Assembly (NCBI GenBank): GCA_016840485.1
Contig: JAEOSG010000007.1
Location: forward strand, 885-32,884
Direction: 5' to 3'
DNA length: 32,000 nt
Source of the DNA: Candidatus Baldrarchaeota archaeon
GTDB lineage: Archaea; Asgardarchaeota; Baldrarchaeia; Baldrarchaeales; DXJG01
A program made the translations under genes and the position numbers. Below, piece after piece: positions 1 through 24,044 of this stretch. Each line of letters starts with the position of its first letter. Positions within the stretch are counted from its first letter, which is position 1. The notes beneath the pieces were generated by a model that made no database searches, was not told the DNA's origin, and saw nothing but the letters and a program-made list of their open reading frames with translations.

Positions 1-175
1 GTTCTTTCGGCGATTCTTTCTTAAATACTAAAGCTTCTGTTCTCTCAAATTGTAAATTTTCATTCATGGAGACAGATGTAATTCCATGTTTTAAATGAAG
101 ATTATCGCTTAACAAATCACTTATACTAATTATGCTTCCGTCACCTAAAACAACTAAAGTGTCAGGTGTAACACA
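1..175 (-). mobile_element. N-terminal part of an intein (Hint domain block A) inserted in aCPSF1 after ...HNAGHILG; the rest lies outside the window.
   Basis: The Cys codon at 175..173 (minus strand) starts CVTPDTLVVLGDGSIISISDLLSDNLHLKHGITSVSMNENLQFERTEALVFKKESPKE. This matches the intein block-A pattern C-x3-DT-x-V-x3-G-x3-I-x2-L. It replaces the expected extein continuation S-A-x-x-H-x-GDG seen in aCPSF1 family members. Confidence 0.75.
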
Positions 176-1177
176 GCCAAGTATGTGTCCAGCGTTATGA
201 AGAGTTAATCTTATGTCTGGCGCTATATCAGTTACTTCTCCATATTCTAGGGGTATTGTATGCATTATAGCTTTCTTAACATCTTTTTGACTATATGGTA
301 AAAGTTTTCCTTCTCTTTCAGCTACATCAAGATAATCTAATTGAAGAAGAGTCATAAGATTTCTTGTCGCCTGCGTGCAGTAAACAGGGCCTTCATACCC
401 GTATTTAAAAAGGAAAGGTACAAACCCGCTGTGATCTAAGTGGGCATGTGTAATTATTACTGCATCTAATTCCTCTATGTCAAATTCAGGCGCATCTAAA
501 TGCGGAAAAGCATGCTCTGGCGAACCAACGTTTACTCCACAATCAATCAATACACTGCTTTCAGAAGTTCTGACCAAAATTGCTGTTCTGCCTACCTCTC
601 TAAATCCTCCTAACGTTGACAACCGTATCCACTCATCTTTTACTAAAATCGGTCTGTGAATTCTTTGTCCTATATTTCTCAAAATTCTCTTACGTTGATC
701 ACTTTCCGATTGAATAATGGTCCTTATCAAGCTTATAGTTTTGGATTTAATTGGAGGACTTCTTATTACTGACGGTCTCCAGAAAGTTTTCTTTATAATC
801 TCCCTTAGAGTTACTCCGCTTCTGCCTATAACAAGCCCAGGCTTTTTTGCCTCTATGATAACCTCGCCAACGTTATGATCAAACATTATATTTGTTACTT
901 CTGCCTCTTGGGGAACAATTTCCAAAATTATTTTCTTTGCTTCCTCTGGATCAAGTCTAATACTTGGATCTGACCTAATAACGATTCTCTTCCTTAATCG
1001 TTTTGCAACTTCTTTAATTATATCTCCATTTTCTAGTAACACTTTCGGATTTTTCGAGTAGACAGCTACTTCAGGCCCTTCAAGTTCTAGTGATGTTATC
1101 TGGGCATTTTCTGGTAAACTTTCCAATATTTGTTGTTTTAATTCACTGAATATGTCTATGATTTCTTCTTTAGCCAA
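1..1177 (-). CDS. aCPSF1-type ribonuclease (N-terminal KH domains + metallo-beta-lactamase/beta-CASP), 5' portion only. It runs off the window at position 1 and is interrupted by an intein.
   Basis: My own minus-strand translation; the ORF is missing from the track because it is open at the window edge. It reads LAKEEIIDIFSELKQQILESLPENAQITSLELEGPEVAVYSKNP...KKPGLVIGRSGVTLREI (KH GxxG)...ELDAVIITHAHLDHSGFVPFL (HxHxDH)...DIRLTLHNAGHILG, then switches to CVTPDTLVVLGDG. The TTG start at 1177 is preceded by AGAGGG. An in-frame TTG at 1216 is an alternative start. Confidence 0.85.
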   Translation of the reverse strand, partial: MAKEEIIDIFSELKQQILESLPENAQITSLELEGPEVAVYSKNPKVLLENGDIIKEVAKRLRKRIVIRSDPSIRLDPEEAKKIILEIVPQEAEVTNIMFDHNVGEVIIEAKKPGLVIGRSGVTLREIIKKTFWRPSVIRSPPIKSKTISLIRTIIQSESDQRKRILRNIGQRIHRPILVKDEWIRLSTLGGFREVGRTAILVRTSESSVLIDCGVNVGSPEHAFPHLDAPEFDIEELDAVIITHAHLDHSGFVPFLFKYGYEGPVYCTQATRNLMTLLQLDYLDVAEREGKLLPYSQKDVKKAIMHTIPLEYGEVTDIAPDIRLTLHNAGHILGCVTPDTLVVLGDGSIISISDLLSDNLHLKHGITSVSMNENLQFERTEALVFKKESPKE

Positions 1178-1471
1178 GTTAATCCCTCTTTTTGAACAAT
1201 TTTCATGTTTCTTCAAAAACTCACCTAACCATGCCAGGCATCGAAGCAAGCATGCTTTATTGATTTAAATTTTCTTTGTGGTACCAGTAATTAAAAGGTA
1301 CAACATTACTAATTTCTGGAATGTGGGTTATACGTTATCTAAAAATCGCCTCTATATTACATCATTAGGTGTGAAACTTAAACTATTTAAAAGTTTCGAA
1401 ATAGTTATCATCTAAATTACTTCCAAATATAGATAACAGTTCAGAAAATCAATAACTCGGTCGGAAAGAGC

Positions 1472-1918
1472 ATGGTAGTCAAGGTTACCCTAGTGGGAAT
1501 CAAACAAGCAAAAAAAGGATTTAAATTTATACATCTTGGCCCATCAGAGCAATGTAACAATTGCCCTCTTTATAAAACATGTATGGAGAATCTAGAAAAA
1601 GGAAGAATATATGAAGTAATCAAGGTACGAAACATAAAACACCTATGTAAACTCCACGAAGAAGGAGTAGTAGTCGTTGAAGTTCAGGAAGCGGAAATAG
1701 AAGCAACTATAAACAAAAAGGCAGCCTTTGAAGGAGCAATAGTAACCTTTCACCCCCAACAATGTTCGGAGAATAGTTGCAAGTTTTTGAAACGTTGTTT
1801 GCCTCTCGGTCTGAAAGACGGCGATAGATGTAAAATTGTGAAGGTTATAGATAGAAATATAGAATGCCCGCTGGGAAAGAATTTGGCTCTTGTACAATTG
1901 AAAAGAGTGGAAAAATAA
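1472..1918 (+). CDS. UPF0179-family archaeal Cys-rich protein
   Basis: 148 aa. The pattern LVG...KKG.KF.HLGP...C..C.L...C..LE.GR.YEV..VR...H.C..HE.GV.VVEV and a second Cys cluster (C..SC....C.P.GL.DGD.C.I) match my recollection of UPF0179 proteins. Confidence 0.65.
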   Translation: MVVKVTLVGIKQAKKGFKFIHLGPSEQCNNCPLYKTCMENLEKGRIYEVIKVRNIKHLCKLHEEGVVVVEVQEAEIEATINKKAAFEGAIVTFHPQQCSENSCKFLKRCLPLGLKDGDRCKIVKVIDRNIECPLGKNLALVQLKRVEK

Positions 1919-1941
1919 AAATGGGACAAATATTAAATAAA

Positions 1942-2673
1942 TTATGTAGCGCTAGACTTTTCTTTTCTTACTATTTCTTCAACAAATACTACTGAGTTTA
2001 TCTGTGGAAAATGTTTATGTATATCTGAAGCTATACCGAGTTTCGCATACTGAATATTTTCGAGAAGAAAAACTTCATTTGGCATATGTATTCTTACTTC
2101 TGAATTCTCAATTTTAACCTCAAACTTTTCTTCATCAATGCCTCTCAATCTTCTTCCAATAATAGCTTTAATCTTCTCTAAATCGTCAGTTAACTTCTTT
2201 CTTACATAAACTTCATAAATAATAGTTTTACCAGCAAGGGGATGATTAAAATCAACACGAACCCTACCGCTAGTAACTGTGTGAATAGTGCCAACTTTGC
2301 CATTTATTGTAACTCTCATCCCGGGTCTAGGCGTTATTCCGCTTTTTCTAAATTCTCTTATTGGTACAACTTTTATTTTCTTCGGGTCTCTTTCTCCAAA
2401 TCCCTTTTCGGGCGGGACTCTGATTTCTGCTTTTTTACCCACTTCTAAACCAATTAAACCCTCTTCAAATCCCTTAATAAACCAACCTTCACCAACAATT
2501 ACAAGTTTGGGTTTATATATACCATCTTCCCTATAGATTTTCTCCTTTTTCGCTACATCTTCAAGCGTTAAGTCAGCAATTTCTCCAGTTTCTTCAACAC
2601 GCGCAACGTAATCTACTATTACGAAATCCCCTTCTCTTATAACGTCTTTCACTTCAGTCTCACTTTCAGCCAT
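1942..2673 (-). CDS. Long-type archaeal FKBP peptidyl-prolyl cis-trans isomerase (FKBP + IF/insert + C-terminal domain)
   Basis: 243 aa. GDFVIVDYVARVEETGEI...VIVGEGWFIKGFEEGLIGLEVGKKAEIRVPPEKGFGERD...INGKVGTIHTVTSGRVRVDFNHPLAGKTIIYEVYV is the typical split FKBP fold with a flap insert. Confidence 0.85.
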   Translation of the reverse strand: MAESETEVKDVIREGDFVIVDYVARVEETGEIADLTLEDVAKKEKIYREDGIYKPKLVIVGEGWFIKGFEEGLIGLEVGKKAEIRVPPEKGFGERDPKKIKVVPIREFRKSGITPRPGMRVTINGKVGTIHTVTSGRVRVDFNHPLAGKTIIYEVYVRKKLTDDLEKIKAIIGRRLRGIDEEKFEVKIENSEVRIHMPNEVFLLENIQYAKLGIASDIHKHFPQINSVVFVEEIVRKEKSSAT

Positions 2674-2744
2674 GTTTTAACCCCCTTTGATACGCATTAA
2701 TCGGAATAATTTCCCATCTTTAAAACTATCGTTTTATACAAGTA

Positions 2745-3281
2745 TTATCTTCCTTTCCTTAGATACCATCCTCTGTCAAGAATGTTTTTAATTATTGTTT
2801 TTGTCTGTCCCGTAAGTTTATCCGAGAACTTCATTATCATGCCTAGGCCTAGCGGCTCATAAAATTTGTTAAAAACAATAACTTTACTTCCGATCTGGAC
2901 TAGCGAACCAACTTTAATGATAGATTCTTCTAAGATATCACGACCATAAAGAAAAAGTTGTTCGCCCCTTTCGGATACAACGACCCCCCTTTCTCTACTA
3001 TACTTGGAAATTAGCCATAACCCCTCTAAACTAATCTTAAATTCACCATTTATCTCTCCAAAAAATAATCCCAAATAATAAGGCATTCTTACTTTTTTGG
3101 TTTTATCTAAAATATTGTAAACCTCCGCTGGTACCAGAAATACTTCCTTGATTTTTCCTTCTCCAATAACCACAACCCTTCCCGATGTAACTTTTTTGTA
3201 AATATTTTTCCCGGCCCACTCATTAAGGGCCTTCTGTATTTTTACAATTTCCTTCTTAGTAGCTTTCCTAAATATTATCAT
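2745..3281 (-). CDS. Nip7-like ribosome-biogenesis protein with C-terminal PUA domain
   Basis: 178 aa. PYYLGLFFGEINGEFKISLEG...GEQLFLYGRDILEESI...PLGLG...DRGWYLR resembles the Nip7/PUA architecture. It overlaps the upstream NOP2/Sun methyltransferase gene by 14 nt. Confidence 0.65.
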   Translation of the reverse strand: MIIFRKATKKEIVKIQKALNEWAGKNIYKKVTSGRVVVIGEGKIKEVFLVPAEVYNILDKTKKVRMPYYLGLFFGEINGEFKISLEGLWLISKYSRERGVVVSERGEQLFLYGRDILEESIIKVGSLVQIGSKVIVFNKFYEPLGLGMIMKFSDKLTGQTKTIIKNILDRGWYLRKGR

Positions 3282-4248
3282 TTAACTCCTTCCTCAATCT
3301 TAATTTGCATATGAAAAAACCTTCTGTTCCATGAATATGAGGGTAAAACCTCCTAGCCTCACGTATCTCGTCCCTAACTTTATATCCAAAAAATTCGGTA
3401 AAACCAGGTAATCCATCTTTTAAATCCATCTTTTCCACGGATAAAGGGAACCTTTCTAACACACGGTGAATTACAAGTTCGTTTTCCTCGGGAGCAATAC
3501 TACAGGTAGAGTAAACCAGAATCCCTTCTTTTTTCAAACATTTTAATAAGGCAGTTAACATAGAAAATTGTAAAGTTGAGCAATATTTTATGTCTTCAAT
3601 TAATCTACTCTTTTTACGAGATTTATCAATAGGAATTAGCCCTTCTCCAGTGCAGGGTGCATCTAAAAGGATTTTATCAGCCTTTATGCCAAACTTTGGT
3701 AAATCTCTTGCATCCATTCTGTAAGCAATAACATTTTCGACTCCAAGCCTAGATAAATTGGACCTTAAAGACTTCATACGTTCCCTACTAATGTCAATAG
3801 CCAAAATAACACCCTTATTCTTCATTAACTGAGCTATCTGACTAGTCTTTCCCCCAGGAGCAGCAGCTGCATCAATGACGATTTCTCCGGGTTTAGGATC
3901 TAAAGCATGAACTGGTAAAAGCGATCCCATACCTCTATGAACATAATAGTAACCCAACAGATATTCTGTAGTAGAACCGAGTGAAAAAGGAGACTTAATA
4001 ACCTGGAAAGCGTAATCAATCCATGGAACTTTCTTTAATACGAAACCCTTCTTGACGAGTCTATTCCTCAGCGATTCAACACTTATTTTTAAGGTGTTAC
4101 ATCTAATTACCGGATTTAGTCCTTTCTCGTTAGCTTCTAAAAGTTCAATGGTTTCTTCCTTACCGAAAAGCTCAAGATATCTTTCTATCATGTAGACATG
4201 ATAACCGTATTTTTCAGCTAATTTCTTGGCTAACTCTCCAATGTCCAA
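3268..4248 (-). CDS. NOL1/NOP2/Sun-family RNA cytosine-C5 methyltransferase
   Basis: 326 aa. SAM motif I is VIDAAAAPGGKT. The catalytic Cys motifs are LLDAPCTGEG (motif IV) and LVYSTCSIAPEENE (motif VI). Confidence 0.85.
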   Translation of the reverse strand: MDIGELAKKLAEKYGYHVYMIERYLELFGKEETIELLEANEKGLNPVIRCNTLKISVESLRNRLVKKGFVLKKVPWIDYAFQVIKSPFSLGSTTEYLLGYYYVHRGMGSLLPVHALDPKPGEIVIDAAAAPGGKTSQIAQLMKNKGVILAIDISRERMKSLRSNLSRLGVENVIAYRMDARDLPKFGIKADKILLDAPCTGEGLIPIDKSRKKSRLIEDIKYCSTLQFSMLTALLKCLKKEGILVYSTCSIAPEENELVIHRVLERFPLSVEKMDLKDGLPGFTEFFGYKVRDEIREARRFYPHIHGTEGFFICKLRLRKELNDNI

Positions 4249-4470
4249 AGCGAATTCACCAGTTTTTGGTAAATACTTATCATAGAGAAATTAGCTGCTT
4301 TAAGAAATATCATAAACTTATATCTTTAATGCATTCTATGGAAAGTTTTGACTTAAATTTTTATAAAGCAGCACGAATGAAAATTTAAGTTTCCAGTATT
4401 TCTAGAATATCCTTTTGAGAAATATCGTTGTCTACCTGTCTTTTGGTTCGGCGTAACCAATCAACATCGG

Positions 4471-5145
4471 TTAATCACTGAAGATGTTTAAAAGTCTATA
4501 CGCGATTTTCGCATCTTTCTCAATATTGACTATTGCTACATAGCCATTTATTGAAGCACCAGGATTTATAATGGGCACCCCATTTAGCTTGTCAACTCCT
4601 CTTCCTTCGTGAATATGCCCATGAATCCCCATTAAAGGTCTATATTTTAAAATAAATTCTCTAACAGATTTACTACCAACATGAAGACCAGCAAAAGTGA
4701 GATCAAGAGCAGTATTGTTTGGAGGATCATGAGAAACCAAAACTATGCGACTAAAATCCTTAACTCCGCTTACAGCATTTCTCAGCAAATTCCATATTTC
4801 ATTTTCATCCAGCTCAAAAGGAGTGTTAAAAGGAGTAGTAGAAGAACCACCCACACCAATAAAACCAACATCATCCATATAGATTAACTTACCATGAATA
4901 CAAACGGCACCTTCAACTTTAACATGAACAAGTTCACGAGGATCGCAATTACCTGGAACGTACAACATCTTCAAACCACTTTTAGAGAACATTCTTAAAA
5001 CTTCGATACCCTCGTCAACAGTTCCAAAATCGGTCAAGTCACCGCAAAAGACTATGAATTCGCATCGAAGCTTCCGAGCATAAGATGTGATTTTTGGAAC
5101 CAGACTGATATTTCCGTGGAGGTCAGAAACAGCGCAAAACCTCAT
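4471..5145 (-). CDS. Calcineurin-like metallophosphoesterase
   Basis: 224 aa. The motifs SDLHGN, CGDLTDFG, GNCD, SHDPP and GHIHEG occur in canonical order. Confidence 0.75.
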   Translation of the reverse strand: MRFCAVSDLHGNISLVPKITSYARKLRCEFIVFCGDLTDFGTVDEGIEVLRMFSKSGLKMLYVPGNCDPRELVHVKVEGAVCIHGKLIYMDDVGFIGVGGSSTTPFNTPFELDENEIWNLLRNAVSGVKDFSRIVLVSHDPPNNTALDLTFAGLHVGSKSVREFILKYRPLMGIHGHIHEGRGVDKLNGVPIINPGASINGYVAIVNIEKDAKIAYRLLNIFSD

Positions 5146-5425
5146 GTCAACATCACCAATATACTCGTGTGATAAATTCTAACCAAAGATCGCATTTACA
5201 AATAATAATGTTACTATAAACGGATACTCTTTAAACCGTACGGTACTGCGCTAAATAAAATAAAAACAGGGGTCTATTAATTTTTACGCTTATTAGATGC
5301 CAATAATAGCTAGCTGAGCTAATATTAAAGGTCAAATAATGATTTTTAAGGTTTTAAATAAAGGTTCGAAATTAGTAAAATTTTAAACTAAGAAATTCGT
5401 TGTATGAATTGCTGCCGCAAAACCT

Positions 5426-6646
5426 GTGGAGGCTTATAGTTTGGCTTATCTTATTGGTGAGGCCCTTGTCGGAAAAGATGAAGAAATAGCACATATAGAG
5501 TTAATAATCGGGGAGAGAGATGGACCGGTAGGTAAAGCATTTGTAGAAGCATTTGCAAACCCCAAATACGGACATACTCCATTGTTAGCGGTTATCAGAC
5601 CGAATCTACCAGCAAAGCCTTGGACACTAATAGTTCCAAAAGTAACTATAAAAAACATGGAACAAGCAGACAAAATATTTGGACCGGCTCAATCTGCAGT
5701 TGCAAAAGCAATCGCTGATGCTGTGGAAGAAGGTATTATACCAATGGATAAATTAGACGAATGGGTGATAATTGTAAGCGTATTCATACACCCAAAAGCA
5801 AAGGATGACAGAAAAATCTATAACTACAATTATAGCGCTACAAAGCTTGCTCTTAAGAGGGCCCTAACAAACTACCCATCTTGGGAGAAAATCGCATATG
5901 ACAAGGATAGGGCGGTGCATCCAATTATAGGTTATAGAATGAATCATCGGCTTTGGAGACCACCATATCTACAAATAGCTCTGGACATACCAGACATAGA
6001 GAAAACAATTCAAATTATCAAACAAGTACCGAAAAGCGACAGAATTATCCTAGAAGTCGGAACACCACTAATTAAGAAATACGGAACCAAAGTAATAAGG
6101 GATATACGAGAAGTGGCTAAAAACAAGTTTATAATAGCAGATTTAAAAACATTGGATGTTAGCCAAGTAGAAGTTGATATAGCTTTTGAAGAAACAGCAG
6201 ACGCCGTTGTAGCAAGTGGATTAGCAGCACCAGAGTCCCTAGACAAGTTTGTTTACGAAGCAAAAAGACTAGGGATATATGCCTTCATAGATATGATGTA
6301 TGTGGAAAATCCTATAGAAAAACTAAAAACATTAAAACAACCGCCAGATGTAGTAATATTACACAGAGCAATAGATGTAGAAACAAAAGAAGACTTAAGA
6401 TGGGCTTGGATTAAAAAAATAAAAGAGGAATACCAAGGGAAAATACTTATAGCAGTAGCAGGAGGTATAACGCCACAAACAGCTCCAGAAGCCCTAAAAA
6501 ACGGAGCAGATATCTTAATAGTGGGAAGATACATAACTCAAAGCAAAGATGTTGAAAGATCCACAAGAGAGTTCTTACTCAAAATAGCAGAACACACGCC
6601 AAAGGAACCAGGAGACATAGATCTCTTCAGGGTTCATATAGAGTAA
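5426..6646 (+). CDS. fae-hps: Bifunctional formaldehyde-activating enzyme / 3-hexulose-6-phosphate synthase (Fae-Hps fusion)
   Basis: 406 aa with a GTG start. The N-terminal half, LIGEALVG...[17 protein letters not shown]...[23 protein letters not shown], is Fae-like. The C-terminal half, LQIALD...[13 protein letters not shown]...ADLKTLD...AVAGGI...IVGRYIT, is HPS / OMP-decarboxylase-fold. Confidence 0.85.
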
Positions 6647-6733
6647 TAAAATTATCTCCATGAAAACATAGCAAATCTTAATAAATTGATGTGTTTTCCA
6701 CTTATTGGTACATTGCAAAAAGAATAAAAAACG

Positions 6734-6742
6734 TTTATATAA
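6734..6742 (+). promoter_or_regulatory. Candidate TATA box (TTTATATAA) for the isolated uS19 gene
   Basis: An A-rich BRE-like stretch (AAAAAACG) sits directly upstream. The box lies about 55-60 nt before the ATG at 6796. Motif spotting only. Confidence 0.3.
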
Positions 6743-6795
6743 TGATCTAAAATTCACATAACAAGAAGTAACAAAAGATATGAGAGTGGCAAAAA

Positions 6796-7203
6796 ATGCC
6801 GAAGAAATTTACATACAGAGGATATACCCTAGAAGAACTACAAAAAATGTCAATGGACCAGTTTATCAACCTACTGCCAGCAAGACAACGCCGGTCTCTA
6901 TTACGCGGCTTAACACCACAACAAAGAATCCTACTAGAAAAAATAAGAAAGGTTAAACGTCTACAACAAAAAACCAAAAAGAAAATAGTAATACGGACGC
7001 ATGTCAGAGACATGATTATATTACCAGAGATGGTAGGATTAACAATAGCCGTTTACAATGGAAAGGAATTTATTCCGGTAGAAATAAAACCGGAAATGAT
7101 TGGCCATTTCCTAGGAGAATTTTCACCAACATGTGCACGCGTTGAACACGGAGCACCAGGAATAGGAGCCACACGATCCTCTATGTATGTTCCACTGAAG
7201 TAA
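6796..7203 (+). CDS. rps19: Ribosomal protein uS19 (S19p/S15e)
   Basis: 135 aa. [13 protein letters not shown]...[13 protein letters not shown]...[37 protein letters not shown] is a hallmark uS19 sequence. Confidence 0.95.
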
Positions 7204-7247
7204 ACCAATAATTAACTAAAACTACAAAACTATAATTTTGCCTACTA

Positions 7248-7613
7248 TTATTCTTCTACCAGGAAACCGTGTTCTTTCAATCGTTGATACATTTTTCTAA
7301 AACCATCGCAGTTTTTCCAATCTGCTTTATATACGCATTCCCGACAGACCTTTTGGATGCTGTTCATTCTATACAGCCCGAAAATGCTATTTATTGCGCC
7401 ATAAACATTTAGAAAAAGGAAAACTCTCAAAATGATGTGAACTTTTAGAGTAAAAATTCCAATAAATATGAAACCAAGTCCCGCTGCTAAACCTATTTTT
7501 GCTAATATTCTCAAGAATGTAACTTGCCTTGTTTTACATAATATATTAACGATATTTATAGAGATCAGAGTTATACCAATTAACATGTATGTCTTAGATG
7601 ATAAATTGATCAA
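7248..7613 (-). CDS. Hypothetical small membrane protein with a cytoplasmic Cys-containing tail
   Basis: 121 aa with a TTG start; an internal ATG at codon 10 is an alternative. It has three or four hydrophobic segments and then ...CRECVYKADWKNCDGFRKMY. I do not recognise the family. Confidence 0.4.
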   Translation of the reverse strand: MINLSSKTYMLIGITLISINIVNILCKTRQVTFLRILAKIGLAAGLGFIFIGIFTLKVHIILRVFLFLNVYGAINSIFGLYRMNSIQKVCRECVYKADWKNCDGFRKMYQRLKEHGFLVEE

Positions 7614-7863
7614 GAAAAATGAAGAAAATAGTAATACCGTAGTCAGGAATGTTGGAATGCCGAGTAAGCACCCCTTACATAATTTAATATTTCCAAAGAC
7701 GAAATAGTGACCCTTAAAGTACTTGCAATCGGGATGATGCGAGAGAAGGAAAGGTTCTAAGTCCTTACAGAAAGTGTATAAATGTCTGAAAATTCTCCTA
7801 AACTTTAACTTCAGAAAATGTCGCCCCCTAAACAGACAATAAATAAAAGTAAAAATGGGTGTG

Positions 7864-8211
7864 TTAAATGCCGCCGCCCATAAATGGTATGCCCCATCCT
7901 ATGAACAAAGCCACACCGAGAGCAATTACTAGAGGTATTAATCCTGCAAGTAACCAAGCGAGAATTGCTTGCCCCCATCCAACTTCATGTCTTGTCTTTA
8001 TAAAGTACCATTGTAAAATACACCCAAGACATGGTATTACGCTGACAATTGCCATAAGAAGCACTGTAACAAACACCCTGCCAAAATCTGTCACTGGAGC
8101 ACCTACCACCTTTAATCCTATCAATAGAAAAACGGAGCCTATCAACAATGTTAATATGAAAACTAGTATAATTAACCCTATTAGTCCACCTAGTGCCAAC
8201 ATTTGAAACAT
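7864..8211 (-). CDS. Hypothetical small integral membrane protein
   Basis: 115 aa, almost entirely hydrophobic helices (LALGGLIGLIILVFILTLLIGSVFLLIGL...). I prefer it over the mirror ORF 7868..8206(+), which is low-complexity and Pro/Asn-rich. Confidence 0.4.
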   Translation of the reverse strand: MFQMLALGGLIGLIILVFILTLLIGSVFLLIGLKVVGAPVTDFGRVFVTVLLMAIVSVIPCLGCILQWYFIKTRHEVGWGQAILAWLLAGLIPLVIALGVALFIGWGIPFMGGGI

Positions 8212-8358
8212 TTCCTATACCTCCAACTTAATATTCTCTATTTATTCAGAGAAACTTGTATAAAAACTTGTGTAGTTATTGTAATATCAGTATACAAATT
8301 CTAAAGTGGAAAAAGTAGAATAGATAGTCGTACTTTAACCCTTTTCAGGGGCGTGATT

Positions 8359-9471
8359 TTATTTAATTTTTTCTATTATTGCCGAAAGTCTTTGCAATAT
8401 TCTTTGTTTTGTTCCTTTTCTCTCGAGTTCTTTTTTTAGTTTTTCTATAAGTTCTATTTTTAACGGATCTACACCCCTCAGAAAGGCGAGATATAGCGTC
8501 GCCATGTCTCCTATAAACATTGTCGAAAACATGTTTTCCAATGTGCTTTTCCCTCTGGCCCATACTTCTAAGATCCTCGTAACGCCTCTTTCTGAGAGCA
8601 GATTCTTTAATATTTCTATTCTTGTTTTTATTTCATCTCTTTCACCGCGATATCTAAGGAATATAACAGAAAACATGTTAGGCGCCATGTGTTTCCATCC
8701 CATTATTTCGTTATGGTTCATTTCAGGTATTACGCCATAGAACGCATGAACCTTGCTGTTCTCATTTAATTGACACTTCATTCTATAGGCTATTGGGTTT
8801 TGAATTCCTGAACCATAAATTATAGGTATGGTATTCAATATCTGAACTGCAATCTCCTTTGCGGGGTTTTCCTCTAACGGAACTTCAGGCTTAATCTGTT
8901 CACGGACTTGCTGTAAAACTTCAGCGGTTGATCTGATCTCCGTACTTAAATTTTCTATAATTTCCATTTTCTCAAGAAAGGATACTATTGGTATTGTTAA
9001 ATAAATTATTGCTTCCCTCGGTTGGTAATCACTTGGAATACGTATGAATGGTAATCTAGCCTTTTGACAATATTCTTCCAATTTTCCATCGCTTGTAACA
9101 GCCAATATCTGCGCTTTTCTTTCAAGAGCTTGTAAAAATACGCTTAATGTCTCCTCCGTATTTCCAGAATAGCTAGCTAAAATTACAAGAGCATTTTTGT
9201 CAACATAATTTGGCAATGTATAATCCTTTACCGAAATAATTGGTATTTTTATCTTATCTTGAAGCCACGTAGCCACGATGTCCCCACTAATTCCAGAACC
9301 ACCCATGCCGGCTATAACTATGGTTTGAGGTGGAGTGACCACTTCTGGTAGGTTTATTGGTTCTAACTTGTAAGCTTGTAAACATGCTTCAGGATAACTC
9401 AAAACGTTTGAAATCGCATGAGACTTATCTAACTTATATAAAATATCTACGTTGTCTAAATCTATTTTCAT
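8359..9471 (-). CDS. SIS-domain sugar isomerase, probably a bifunctional phosphoglucose/phosphomannose isomerase
   Basis: 370 aa. It has the SIS motifs IAGMGGSGISGDI and LASYSGNTEETL, and a C-terminal half typical of archaeal PGI/PMI. Confidence 0.65.
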   Translation of the reverse strand: MKIDLDNVDILYKLDKSHAISNVLSYPEACLQAYKLEPINLPEVVTPPQTIVIAGMGGSGISGDIVATWLQDKIKIPIISVKDYTLPNYVDKNALVILASYSGNTEETLSVFLQALERKAQILAVTSDGKLEEYCQKARLPFIRIPSDYQPREAIIYLTIPIVSFLEKMEIIENLSTEIRSTAEVLQQVREQIKPEVPLEENPAKEIAVQILNTIPIIYGSGIQNPIAYRMKCQLNENSKVHAFYGVIPEMNHNEIMGWKHMAPNMFSVIFLRYRGERDEIKTRIEILKNLLSERGVTRILEVWARGKSTLENMFSTMFIGDMATLYLAFLRGVDPLKIELIEKLKKELERKGTKQRILQRLSAIIEKIK

Positions 9472-9543
9472 GTTGCAACACCTTTTTGAATGAATTAATT
9501 ACAAATTATTTCCCATACGCACGATAGGAACTCAATTTGACGA

Positions 9544-9840
9544 TTACCATTTTTTTCTCGGTATTTTTTTAATCCTGTCCTGAGGTCTTCCAACTAGAAC
9601 TTTACCATCTACTTTAACCGTTATTCCATCTGGAAGGAAAATGTAAAAGATACATATAGCCTTTGGTATTCTTTTAATTTTTCCATTTTTCGATAGAAAA
9701 AGTAAAGTTTTTTGTGTCTCATCTACTATTTTTCCTTCAACATTTATAAATGTGGGATCTTTACTTTCAACAACTCTTGCGAAAAGTCCGATCAATTCAT
9801 GCTGAATAATATTTTCTGGAGTAATTTTCATAGAAAACAC
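9544..9840 (-). CDS. rnp1: RNase P protein component 1 (Rpp29/Pop4 homologue)
   Basis: 98 aa. HELIGL.ARVV.S.DP..I...G.IVDET.KTL.........K.IPK..C.F...LPDG..V.VDG..L.GRP.DR matches Rpp29. It occupies the usual position after uL29. The true start may be the ATG at 9831. Confidence 0.8.
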   Translation of the reverse strand: MFSMKITPENIIQHELIGLFARVVESKDPTFINVEGKIVDETQKTLLFLSKNGKIKRIPKAICIFYIFLPDGITVKVDGKVLVGRPQDRIKKIPRKKW

Positions 9841-9842
9841 GG

Positions 9843-10043
9843 TTACTTTTCTTCTTCTTTCATTATAGTTATTAATCTAGCTATTGTTCTTTTTATTTCC
9901 CTTATACGTCCTGGGTTCTCTATTGCGCCACCCATGGCTTTCATTGCCATAAGACGCATCAACTCGGTCTTTAATTCTTCTAATCGTTTCCTACGTTGGT
10001 CAGGAGGCATTTTTCTTATTTCACTTGCCCTTAAAATTGCCAT
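9843..10043 (-). CDS. rpl29: Ribosomal protein uL29
   Basis: 66 aa. MAILRASEIRKM..DQRRKRLEELKTELMRL....AMGG.IENPGRIREIKRTIARL. Confidence 0.9.
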   Translation of the reverse strand: MAILRASEIRKMPPDQRRKRLEELKTELMRLMAMKAMGGAIENPGRIREIKRTIARLITIMKEEEK

Positions 10044-10681
10044 TACGATTCCTCCTCAACACCTTCCTCTTCCTTAATTTCGATTTCTTTCTCTTTTATT
10101 TTTATGTGGTCGGGTAGTTCCGCATCTGGACGCATAATTTTCACGTGTATTCCCATAACTCCAGGTTTCAATAGCACGTGTGTTACTGCTTCATCAACAA
10201 ACTTTTCCGCTGGTTCACCGGTCTTTGCTATGTACCCAGCTGTAAATTTTCTATATTTTGCCCTTTGGCTTACCAGTTTTCCTCTTATAATAATTTCTGC
10301 ACCTCTAGCACCCGCTTCCATTATTCTTCGCAATGCAAAGTAGGCCGCTCTTCTGAAGTGTACCCCTCTCTGAAGTGCTGCCGCTATTCTTGCTGCTACA
10401 ACTTTTGCACTCAGATCTGGATCCTCTACTTCCTCTACTTCAATCTGCGGATTTTCTATTCCAAACCTTTCCTCTAAGATCTGTGTAAGTTCTCTTATGT
10501 TATGTCCTCCTCTTCCAATTATAAGTCCTGGTCGTGCTGCGTAAATTACGACCCTGGTTCTTATTGGAGTTTTAAATAATTCTACACCAGCGTATCCTGC
10601 TCTTTTCAACTCTTTCTCGAGGAATTCGTCAATTGCTGCTCTTTTTAACCCTTCTTGGATAAATACGTTTTTTAGAGGCAA
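10043..10681 (-). CDS. rps3: Ribosomal protein uS3
   Basis: 212 aa. It has a KH domain (PGLIIGRGGHNIRELT) and RGAEIIIRGKL...RAK...F..GY. The tail is acidic. Confidence 0.95.
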   Translation of the reverse strand: MPLKNVFIQEGLKRAAIDEFLEKELKRAGYAGVELFKTPIRTRVVIYAARPGLIIGRGGHNIRELTQILEERFGIENPQIEVEEVEDPDLSAKVVAARIAAALQRGVHFRRAAYFALRRIMEAGARGAEIIIRGKLVSQRAKYRKFTAGYIAKTGEPAEKFVDEAVTHVLLKPGVMGIHVKIMRPDAELPDHIKIKEKEIEIKEEEGVEEES

Positions 10682-10687
10682 TTCATG

Positions 10688-11176
10688 TCACCCCAGAAGT
10701 TCTTCAACAATAATTTCAACGTGGGTGAGCTGTTGAAACTTTGGAGTTGAACGACCAAAAGCTCTCGGAATATATCTCTTAATTTTTGGCCCCATTTGGG
10801 CTGCTGCGTGAATTATTTTACATCTTTCCGTATCTAACCCTTTATAATCGGCATTGTTTTCCACGTTTCTTAGGACTTCAAGGATTTCTTTCGCTGCTTT
10901 AACTGGGTATCTCCCTGACGGCCACTTTTGTAATTGTCTTCTGTGTCCAATCTCCTTTTTATATCTTTTAAATGGAACTGGCCTTTTTAGCGCTATTACA
11001 TCCTCTAGGTATTCCATTGCATCTTTAAGCATCATTCCTTTTATTGTATGACATATTTCCCTAGCTGCCTTCAATGATATACGCAAATCCCTTCCTGAAG
11101 CTTTTGCTGTCCTGTCTGGGTCTAGGTCTTTGATCGAATACTCCCATGTTGGCACAGTGAACACCACCTCTACCAT
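10688..11176 (-). CDS. rpl22: Ribosomal protein uL22
   Basis: 162 aa. AKASGRDLRISLKAAREICHTIKGM...A..YLEDVI....PVPF.RY...GHR is typical archaeal L22. Confidence 0.9.
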   Translation of the reverse strand: MVEVVFTVPTWEYSIKDLDPDRTAKASGRDLRISLKAAREICHTIKGMMLKDAMEYLEDVIALKRPVPFKRYKKEIGHRRQLQKWPSGRYPVKAAKEILEVLRNVENNADYKGLDTERCKIIHAAAQMGPKIKRYIPRAFGRSTPKFQQLTHVEIIVEELLG

Positions 11177-11725
11177 TAGAGTTTCCCTTTTAAATACTTC
11201 TATAGCTCCGATTCCCGGAGGCTCATCTGATTAAACCAGTACAGGGTAATACTACTTTTACTTACAGAGTCTTTAAATTTTTAACTAAAGTTTGTCACTT
11301 TTACCTTACAAATATAATAGTTACGGTACCATAACTCTGTCACACGGCTGTCACATGAATCTAAGGTATTTATTTTAAAATTTTAAGAAGTTTGATAATT
11401 AGGAATCTGTTTAATGATTTCTGATTAAAGGATATATCATCTATCCGAATAAACCAAAAATAAACCCTTTTTTATTTATTTCTCAAAGTAACTCGTTAAT
11501 ATGGAAACTTATGCTTTAATTTCGAGTATTTTTTAATAAGACCTTCTTAAACTATATCGTACTAACCCTGTCTAGTCAGGTATTTTTAGGTAAACTTTTT
11601 TAAGTCATTTATTTTTGTGATGGTTACGCAAATATACCTATTCAAGGGTGAGTGAACCCTTATCCCTTAGACACGAAAAAGTTAAAAACAATTTTATTAA
11701 CCATGTTTCAAACCACCCTTCAACG

Positions 11726-11735
11726 TTAATAATAA
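11726..11735 (+). promoter_or_regulatory. Candidate TATA-like element (TTAATAATAA) upstream of the uS17...SecY operon
   Basis: It lies about 45-50 nt before the ATG at 11779. A GGAGGT Shine-Dalgarno sits at 11765-11770. Motif spotting in a very AT-rich spacer, so weak. Confidence 0.25.
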
Positions 11736-11778
11736 TTCAAATGCGAATCGTTTGTAAATAAATTGGAGGTTCTTTAAG

Positions 11779-12105
11779 ATGACTAGAAACATAGGGCTAG
11801 ACGTTACTCCGCCTAAGTCAGAGTGTGATGACCCAAATTGCCCATTTCACGGTACTTTACCCGTTAGAGGAAGAATATTTGAAGGCATAGTTGTCAGTGA
11901 TAAAATGAATAGAACGGTCGTCGTAAGAAGAGATTATCTATGGTATGTTAAAAAATATATGAGATATGAAAAAAGAAAATCCCTTATTCACGCCCACAAT
12001 CCTCCGTGTATTGACGCTAAAATTGGAGATAGAGTAAAAATAGCGGAGTGCCGTCCCCTTAGCAAAACGGTAAGTTTCGTTGTTATAGAAAAATTAAGCA
12101 AATAG
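11779..12105 (+). CDS. rps17: Ribosomal protein uS17
   Basis: 108 aa. [40 protein letters not shown]...[21 protein letters not shown]. Confidence 0.95.
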
Positions 12106-23613: not shown

Positions 23614-23752
23614 GTATTTAACCAAAATTCCGTTATCTATTTTAAATTAATGGTATAATTAGATTGTGCATTGCCTTTAAATACGCAAATAATGTTATAA
23701 TACCCAGAAACTTTAAACAGAGATAATTGTAGGTGCCGGGGTAGCCAAGTGG

Positions 23753-23771
23753 ACTACAGGCTTTATGCCGG
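23753..23771 (+). other. Non-canonical tRNA intron in the D-loop of tRNA-Ser; boundaries ambiguous
   Basis: Removing ACTACAGGCTTTATGCCGG yields the widespread Ser D-arm AGTGGTTA; because of flanking GG repeats the register may shift by 1-2 nt. An alternative 18-nt intron at 23758-23775 is supported by a partial BHB:
- Helix G23752.U73, A53-U72, C54-G71, U55.G70.
- Bulge A56 C57 A58.
- Inner helix G59-C69, G60-C68, C61-G67. Confidence 0.45.
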
Positions 23772-23790
23772 TTAGGGCGCGGGCCTGGAG

Positions 23791-23810
23791 TTTCAAGTAA
23801 GCCACGAGAT
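23791..23810 (+). other. Canonical-position (37/38) tRNA intron of tRNA-Ser(GGA), 20 nt
   Basis: The mature loop is CUGGAG|A. The expected bulges, A89 G90|U91 and A09 U10|A11, flank a 4-position central helix: C23785-G23808, U86-A07, G87xG06 (mismatch), G88-C05. The BHB is therefore imperfect. Confidence 0.6.
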
Positions 23811-24044
23811 AGCCCGTGGCCCTTACGGGCCGCGTGGGTTCGAATCCCACCCCCGGCGCCATAATAATTTAAAAGATTAATGCCTTTTGTCCACCTCTCA
23901 AATTAGTCGAGATGTTTATATCGTTTTTGGGACTTTAGAAATAGGTTACTTTGAACATTTGCTTAACTTAAGATTCAAAAAGGAATGCGGTTGTTTTCGG
24001 CTAGTTTATAATGAAACAGAGAGTTTGGTTAAAGAGGGGATGGA

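Follow-up and report, generated by a model that had tools for sequence, protein, structure and literature searches.

A predicted class-1 intein in the catalytic motif of the aCPSF1/FttA gene of an Odinarchaeota-type Asgard archaeon

The aCPSF1 gene at the left edge of the window

The stretch analysed in this work, hereafter called the window, comprises 32,000 nucleotides of contig JAEOSG010000007.1 (assembly GCA_016840485.1, Candidatus Baldrarchaeota archaeon), and its first 1,177 positions carry the beginning of a minus-strand gene encoding aCPSF1/FttA. The eukaryotic orthologue of this protein is CPSF-73. Judging from the sequence, it is very likely that the gene, which would belong to an Odinarchaeota-type Asgard archaeon, is interrupted by a class-1 intein with a LAGLIDADG domain. 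The host protein is a zinc-dependent nuclease, probably essential, that acts as the general termination factor of archaea (PMC3553952, PMC7515710).

Translation of the minus strand from position 1177 to position 1 yields 392 codons uninterrupted by a stop, beginning with a TTG codon at 1177 that is also the start in the gene calls on the source contig (Table 1). A preliminary description of this DNA had assigned the frame to aCPSF1 on the basis of KH domains and of motifs such as ITHAHLDHSG, and Pfam, the NCBIfam aCPSF1 model TIGR03675 and the translation all agree with this assignment. Residues 11-355 of the product align to positions 2-347 of the 631 in TIGR03675, Pfam recognises metallo-beta-lactamase domains in addition to KH_TffA and KH_2, and the HAHLDH motif is kept in the alignment of all solved aCPSF1 structures. 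The N-extein is about 95% identical to the same part of an intein-less relative, P0001.

Table 1. Position of the features at the aCPSF1 locus, in related loci and elsewhere in the window
Feature	Sequence	Position	Strand	Evidence or remark
N-extein, aCPSF1/FttA residues 1-334	window	176..1177	minus	two KH domains and first part of metallo-beta-lactamase domain; ends ...HNAGHILG
KH_TffA, residues 8-74	window	956..1156	minus	Pfam PF17214, 88.6 bits, cutoff 22.6
Second KH domain, residues 90-130	window	788..910	minus	Pfam KH_2, 22.4 bits, cutoff 22
Metallo-beta-lactamase motif 2, HAHLDH, residues 244-249, within ITHAHLDHSG	window	431..448	minus	translation
HNAGH, residues 327-331; His331 is the motif-3 histidine, 3 residues before the splice junction	window	185..199	minus	translation
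Codon TGT, Cys335, intein residue 1, predicted N-terminal splice nucleophile	window	173..175	minus	alleles: occupied GGC/TGT, empty GGC/TCT
First 58 intein residues (block A region)	window	1..175	minus	TIGR01445 on the fragment alone
Precursor gene, 1030 codons	L001	6614-9706	minus	
Intein, 392 residues (precursor 335-726)	L001	7529-8704	minus	window coordinates -1000 to 175
C-extein, 304 residues (precursor 727-1030)	L001	6614-7528	minus	including stop codon
Intein_splicing (PF14890)	intein alone	residues 8-392		92 bits, cutoff 35.8
LAGLIDADG_3 (PF14528)	intein alone	residues 245-321		59 bits, cutoff 22.5
intein_Nterm (TIGR01445)	intein alone			62.8 bits, cutoff 24.5
intein_Cterm (TIGR01443)	intein alone			32.6 bits, cutoff 15.6
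Intein-less aCPSF1 (P0001)	L039	6001-7917		JGI 3300003332, Guaymas Basin sediment
Distant-lineage aCPSF1-intein gene	L078	1101-4565	minus	
Distant-lineage aCPSF1-intein gene	L083	983-4444	minus	
Distant-lineage aCPSF1-intein gene	L100/L101	10001-13465	plus	
Fused Fae / OMP-decarboxylase-fold protein	window	5426-6646	plus	Pfam on the corresponding L001 gene
Region of many ORFs, opening with a ribosomal-protein cluster	window	10043-31588		cluster from L001 gene calls, to window 11918
tRNA	window	23735-23858	plus	Rfam, 39.3 bits

The homology to aCPSF1 stops at a precise point. Residues 321-334 of the open reading frame read DIRLTLHNAGHILG, and in four out of four solved aCPSF1/FttA structures the sequence HNAGHILGS is invariant. 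In these structures and in P0001, the closest relative, the motif goes on as S-A/S-...H-x-G-D/E-G, much as the preliminary description had stated for the family. In the window, the frame instead continues after HNAGHILG as CVTPDTLVVLGDGSIISISDLLSDNLHLKHGITSVSMNENLQFERTEALVFKKESPKE up to the edge, the stretch that is not extein beginning with CVTPDTLVVLGDG... These 58 trailing residues, taken alone, match the model of the intein N-terminal splicing region, TIGR01445, with 28.3 bits (cutoff 24.5, E = 2.6e-6), the cysteine being aligned to profile position 1 at the start of the match. Thus, the proposed switch to an intein block A is already recognisable in the fragment, which comprises 58 of the 392 intein residues (coordinates 1-175), the remainder lying beyond the left edge. 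The upstream splice junction falls between window bases 176 and 175.

In a protein homology search the 392-residue product of the window returned only intein-less aCPSF1 of about 635 residues, and a query spanning the junction was dominated by extein matches. BLAST alignments extending over 96-98% of the query had suggested that the trailing stretch could be native aCPSF1 sequence; this was rejected, as the extension is gapped and near-random, with a chance FERT/FAKT likeness.

It is well established for beta-CASP enzymes that the motif-3 histidine is a zinc ligand. His331 aligns with His141 of Thermus TTHA0252, which we take to be such a ligand, and lies three residues before the junction, so the claim that the element sits next to a metal-binding histidine is borne out. 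The motif-4 aspartate is found about 20 residues downstream, in the C-extein.

The complete intein on the source contig

The remainder of the gene was recovered from L001 (ENA ERZ650341), an 85-kb contig that is 100% identical to window positions 1-11918 (11,918 nt) and is either the contig of the window itself or one identical to it. It was found through the neighbouring 148-residue UPF0179 protein, the look-up of which gave six loci, each from a different sample; no exact match to the window's first 46 bases was present in the collections of genome contigs and metagenome contigs. On L001, the precursor gene consists of an N-extein, an intein flanked by Gly334 and Ser727, and a C-extein. The preliminary description had asked for precisely such a leftward extension, and the expected elements are all there: block B, a LAGLIDADG domain, a terminal His-Asn, and the extein resuming with its beta-CASP and RMMBL domains.

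The first intein residue, Cys335, directly follows HNAGHILG and, as one of the residues (Cys, Ser or Thr) with which class-1 inteins begin, would be the nucleophile. Block B (T-x-x-H) is TPEH at intein residues 73-76 (precursor 407-410), and it reads T[PD]EH in all seven homologues. The C-terminus of the intein is ...NGIVSHN/SAIVHLH, where the slash marks the junction, with His-Asn followed by Ser+1. Pfam places along the precursor, in this order, KH_TffA, Lactamase_B, Intein_splicing (88.6 bits), LAGLIDADG_3, Beta-Casp and RMMBL. When the intein was searched alone, the three intein models and the LAGLIDADG_3 model all scored above their curated cutoffs (Table 1). Moreover, Cys1, T-x-x-H, the terminal His-Asn and Ser+1 are kept in seven out of seven homologous inteins, whose pairwise identities are only 34-98%. 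Every sequence-level mark of an intein is therefore present; the one mark missing is the acidic residue that would end the first LAGLIDADG motif. We consider it almost certain from these marks that the insertion is a bona fide class-1 intein with a nested LAGLIDADG domain.

Insertion site and restored host protein

In-silico removal of residues 335-726 leaves a protein of 638 residues, which matches TIGR03675 in a single stretch over positions 2-630 of 631 with 1009 bits (cutoff 580); the 1030-residue precursor matches it in two stretches with 985 bits. The best solved-structure matches of the host protein are 2ycb, 3af5, 9bct and 2xr1. Its closest relative in the protein database is P0001, a 638-residue protein with no intein, 95% identical over the exteins. 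Thus, once spliced in silico, the host has the same length as intein-less aCPSF1/FttA (TIGR03675; 2ycb, 3af5, 2xr1, 9bct; P0001), from which the gene differs by an in-frame insert of 1176 nt and by a di-zinc site that would need splicing first.

The locus of P0001, on L039, gives the empty allele. The gene order SepF, aCPSF1, UPF0179, FKBP, NIP7-like, RsmB-like is common to L039 and the occupied locus. The DNA at the empty site of L039, ...CACATACTTGGC/TCTTCAATAGTACAT..., is the candidate target of the endonuclease. Across the junction, the empty allele reads ...ATACTTGGC/TCTTCA... and the occupied one ...ATACTTGGC/TGTGTT...CATAAT/TCTGCA... The insertion point, proposed earlier as G/S from the window alone, is exactly Gly334/Ser, with the native serine as residue +1, both on the source contig and by comparison with the empty allele.

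The intein-free L039 and L006, a contig that shares 99% identity with the window's strain, come from one Guaymas Basin metagenome. It follows that carriers of the intein and potential recipients coexist in the same sample.

Other carriers of the intein

The same 1030-residue gene was found in three further loci, L002 and L004 with one amino-acid difference each and L003 with eight. The cluster of the precursor at 90% identity (P0197/P0198) has 23 members from ENA, JGI/IMG, NCBI and Logan. One of them, MCD6164389.1, is called 'MBL fold metallo-hydrolase [Candidatus Odinarchaeota archaeon]' at NCBI. Since the precursor still scores far above the cutoff of the aCPSF1 model, automatic naming there seems to have suffered from the intein.

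A degenerate scan of DNA for NAGHILGC gave 92 loci, six of which are real (L007, L010, L055, L078, L083 and L084); the remaining ones were rejected as out-of-frame or unrelated matches. L010 (Ca. Odinarchaeota AUK032) and L084 (a 101-kb JGI contig) carry the same type of intein as the window. L055 and L007 form a more divergent sister group, the intein of L055 being 75% identical to that of the window and its exteins 97%. The L007 sequence was left unaligned because of a frameshift in a locus that is also cut. In this contig, which comes from the GTDB representative 'uncultured archaeon binchicken_co6_428', the same intein has a deletion of 1 nt at about position 7280 (ATGC-TACA, compared with L055 1929-1988). 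The deletion causes a frameshift within the endonuclease domain, after which the remaining intein and the C-extein run on in another frame. With a contig coverage of 5.9x, it may be an error of assembly, or the allele may truly be broken.

L078 and L083 belong to a second, distant archaeal lineage. Together with L100 and L101, they have an aCPSF1 intein at the identical insertion site (NAGHILG/C...SHN/S) and with the same splice residues, alignable with that of the window over its whole length at 34-40% identity. It differs in its length of 531-532 residues, in having both LAGLIDADG motifs canonical (GDG and DAEG), and in an extra segment of about 140 residues with weak similarity to HTH_3 (19.8 bits, below the cutoff). 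The host exteins are about 50% identical to those of the window. Chromosomal contigs as long as 506 kb carry this type of gene, with neighbours that include Rad50/Mre11, a thermosome subunit, Cdc6 and a proteasome subunit. Around the motif-4 aspartate the L078-type host protein reads AADQKF or ALDQKF, where the others have TGDFKF. The automatic name of its product at IMG is 'predicted metal-dependent RNase/intein/homing endonuclease'.

A protein search with the intein alone retrieved only distant inteins of other hosts, with at most 77 bits, and it also missed the L078-type relatives. The word-indexed search did not find the window's own 1030-residue protein either, which is a cluster representative, so its lack of matches is weak evidence for rarity.

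Selection on exteins and intein

The ratios of nonsynonymous to synonymous divergence (dN/dS) and the synonymous divergence (dS) in Table 2 are Nei-Gojobori estimates. The exteins are under strong constraint (dN/dS 0.005-0.039), and the intein is under a weaker but real one (0.09-0.16 overall).

Table 2. Nonsynonymous and synonymous divergence of exteins and intein between aCPSF1 loci
Pair	Region	dN/dS	dS
L001 vs L055	exteins	0.015	0.85
L001 vs L055	intein, whole	0.14	0.99
L001 vs L055	N-terminal splicing region	0.05	0.99
L001 vs L055	endonuclease region	0.18	1.07
L001 vs L055	C-terminal splicing region	0.10	0.66
L001 vs L084	exteins	0.007	0.22
L001 vs L084	intein	0.11	0.31
L001 vs L010	exteins	0.005	0.15
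L001 vs L010	intein	0.09	0.20
L001 vs L039 (intein-less)	exteins	0.018	1.34

Within each pair the dS of intein and exteins is similar, indicating that the two diverged together, which points to vertical inheritance within the clade. The dN/dS of the exteins is as low among carriers as in the comparison with the intein-less allele; the interrupted gene should thus be functional, and this would require efficient splicing. Efficient splicing and vertical inheritance of the intein are very probable.

State of the endonuclease

When aligned with L078/L083 and with distant inteins of other hosts, LAGLIDADG motif 1 (block C) of all five Odin-clade copies reads GYMLGRK or GRR. An arginine thus stands where L078 and L083 have GDG and where most of the aligned distant relatives have D or E. 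Motif 2 (block E) retains its glutamate, in IAEG. An acidic residue consequently ends only one of the two motifs, as assigned by this alignment. LAGLIDADG enzymes have one catalytic acidic residue per motif, and the loss of one should abolish double-strand cleavage. Because of this replacement, the homing endonuclease of the Odin-clade intein is probably disabled, a reading we hold with less assurance than that of splicing. The Odin-clade intein also has no counterpart of the segment of about 140 residues with weak HTH_3 similarity; a loss in one lineage or a gain in the other could each account for this.

The endonuclease domain is nevertheless not in free decay, as its dN/dS of 0.08-0.18 shows that it is constrained. 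We favour the explanation that the domain is structurally necessary for splicing, since a misfolded insert would block the maturation of a probably essential termination factor; residual nicking or binding is an alternative.

Several points weigh against this picture of an efficiently splicing, vertically inherited intein with a disabled endonuclease. The synonymous divergence of the most distant pair is near saturation, and splicing itself is a prediction. The dN/dS of the endonuclease domain, about 0.1-0.2, is below what would be expected for a dead domain, which may keep some activity, such as nicking, DNA binding or another role. Furthermore, the catalytic role of the position occupied by arginine is assigned by alignment to the canonical GDG motifs.

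Proposed mechanism and alternative explanations

The intein lies between the motif-3 histidine and the motif-4 aspartate, and the unspliced precursor would therefore be unable to assemble the di-zinc active site. Maturation would follow the standard four-step pathway. Cys335, aided by block B (Thr407...His410), would attack the carbonyl of Gly334, and the N-extein would then pass to the hydroxyl of Ser727 by transesterification. Asn726 would cyclise with the help of the penultimate His725 and release the intein, after which an O-to-N shift would restore a normal Gly-Ser peptide bond. The predicted product is a 638-residue aCPSF1, the same as the uninterrupted protein. In the Odin clade, the intein would be inherited vertically with its host gene, and the endonuclease would probably no longer act as a double-strand nuclease.

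A different view of the element would be that it is fully mobile, with an active LAGLIDADG endonuclease that cuts intein-less aCPSF1 alleles and spreads by homing. Indeed, the domain is complete enough to reach 59 bits on PF14528, it is under purifying selection and it retains the glutamate of motif 2. An intein-less allele with a nearly identical target occurs in the sample that also holds the 99%-identical relative of the window's strain, and the homologous intein at the same site in a host with exteins only about 50% identical fits horizontal spread in the past. However, five out of five Odin-clade copies have arginine (GRK or GRR) at the acidic position of motif 1, where L078, L083 and most distant relatives have D or E, and both acidic residues are needed for double-strand cleavage by LAGLIDADG enzymes. 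The dS values of intein and exteins also track each other, with no sign of recent transfer within the clade. Full mobility thus appears improbable for the Odin-clade intein.

Far less probable still is an insertion that does not splice, in an aCPSF1 copy that is disrupted or decaying while the function is provided by another copy in the genome. The predicted status of splicing, the frameshift in the intein of L007 and the uninformative NCBI name of the precursor would be compatible with it. In contrast, the flanking exteins are constrained like those of the intein-less allele (dN/dS 0.015 compared with 0.018), the splice residues are all conserved across lineages diverged to a dS of about 1, and the frame of 1030 codons is open in the other assemblies examined; as for L007, a single base at its low coverage may be an assembly error. 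It is scarcely credible that the junction itself is an artefact fusing a fragment of aCPSF1 to an unrelated intein-bearing gene. The window ends inside the element, and this is all that speaks for such a fusion; the same exact in-frame structure is present in ENA, JGI, NCBI and Logan assemblies, it recurs in contigs that differ by 2-25% in sequence, and both exteins run without a break into SepF and UPF0179, the syntenic neighbours also found at the intein-less locus. The chimeric join against which the preliminary description had cautioned is thus not what lies here, given the presence of the gene in other assemblies and in the 23-member cluster.

Within the reading of a splicing intein, it is conceivable, if quite unlikely, that the element is more than a tolerated parasite and acts as a post-translational switch, its splicing responding to zinc, redox state or temperature and so gating the amount of active aCPSF1/FttA. 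Such responses could arise because the di-zinc site is split close to a zinc-ligand histidine and because the intein starts with a cysteine. Were this the case, splicing would set the global level of transcription termination in an Asgard lineage, and the selection on a probably nuclease-dead endonuclease domain would reflect a new role of the domain.

Relation to known inteins and significance

The closest solved inteins are those of Pyrococcus horikoshii CDC21, PI-PkoII, PI-PfuI and the VMA inteins. The archaeal class-1 inteins PI-PfuI (1dq3), PI-PkoII (2cw7) and P. horikoshii CDC21/MCM (6rpp, 6rpq) have the same Hint splicing blocks and the same nested LAGLIDADG domain, and they are likewise inserted in a conserved active-site motif of an essential information-processing protein. 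Whereas the hosts of PI-PfuI-type inteins are replication, repair or polymerase proteins, the host here is an RNA-cleaving termination factor. The aCPSF1 intein is at most about 25% identical to inteins of other hosts over long alignments, with a few short local matches of 30-46%, and it differs from those archaeal inteins by the arginine at the conserved acidic position of the first LAGLIDADG motif.

Inteins are biased toward conserved active sites of information-processing proteins, and an insertion in an invariant catalytic motif fits this bias. The preliminary description did not recall aCPSF1 as a catalogued intein host. In agreement with this, literature searches over about 8.3 million full-text papers returned no report joining inteins with aCPSF1/FttA, only incidental co-occurrences, and the main text of the intein survey of Novikova et al. 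mentions no aCPSF1, FttA or beta-CASP host. Automatic annotation at IMG had, however, already flagged an intein in the L078-type aCPSF1 product. Thus, aCPSF1/FttA is a new host protein and a new insertion site for a well-known element, and not a new mechanism.

The main value of the finding lies in annotation, in the use of marker genes and in a natural series on intein decay. For the taxonomy of archaea, aCPSF1 has been put forward as a phylogenetic marker (PMC8653824), and unrecognised inteins in it would distort marker alignments and length filters. A sister allele that is free of the intein, five full-length copies from the Odin clade whose endonuclease is probably disabled, and a larger, intact version in a distant lineage provide together a natural series for the late homing cycle, or decay, of an intein in Asgard archaea.

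Other features of the window

No second intein was noticed among the gene calls of L001 or in the lengths of the open reading frames of the window, the largest of which has 487 residues. The window also encodes a fused protein of the Fae-Hps type, and its cluster of ribosomal proteins starts with S19, L22, S3, L29, an RNase P subunit and S17 (Table 1). ARAGORN reported no tRNA anywhere in the window. Rfam detected one, spread over 124 nt. Compared with the model, it has 22 additional nt in the D-loop region and 23 more inserted behind the anticodon loop, and its variable arm is long. The anticodon loop, read by eye as CU-GGA-G, suggests a tRNA-Ser(GGA) that carries two introns, one canonical and the other non-canonical.

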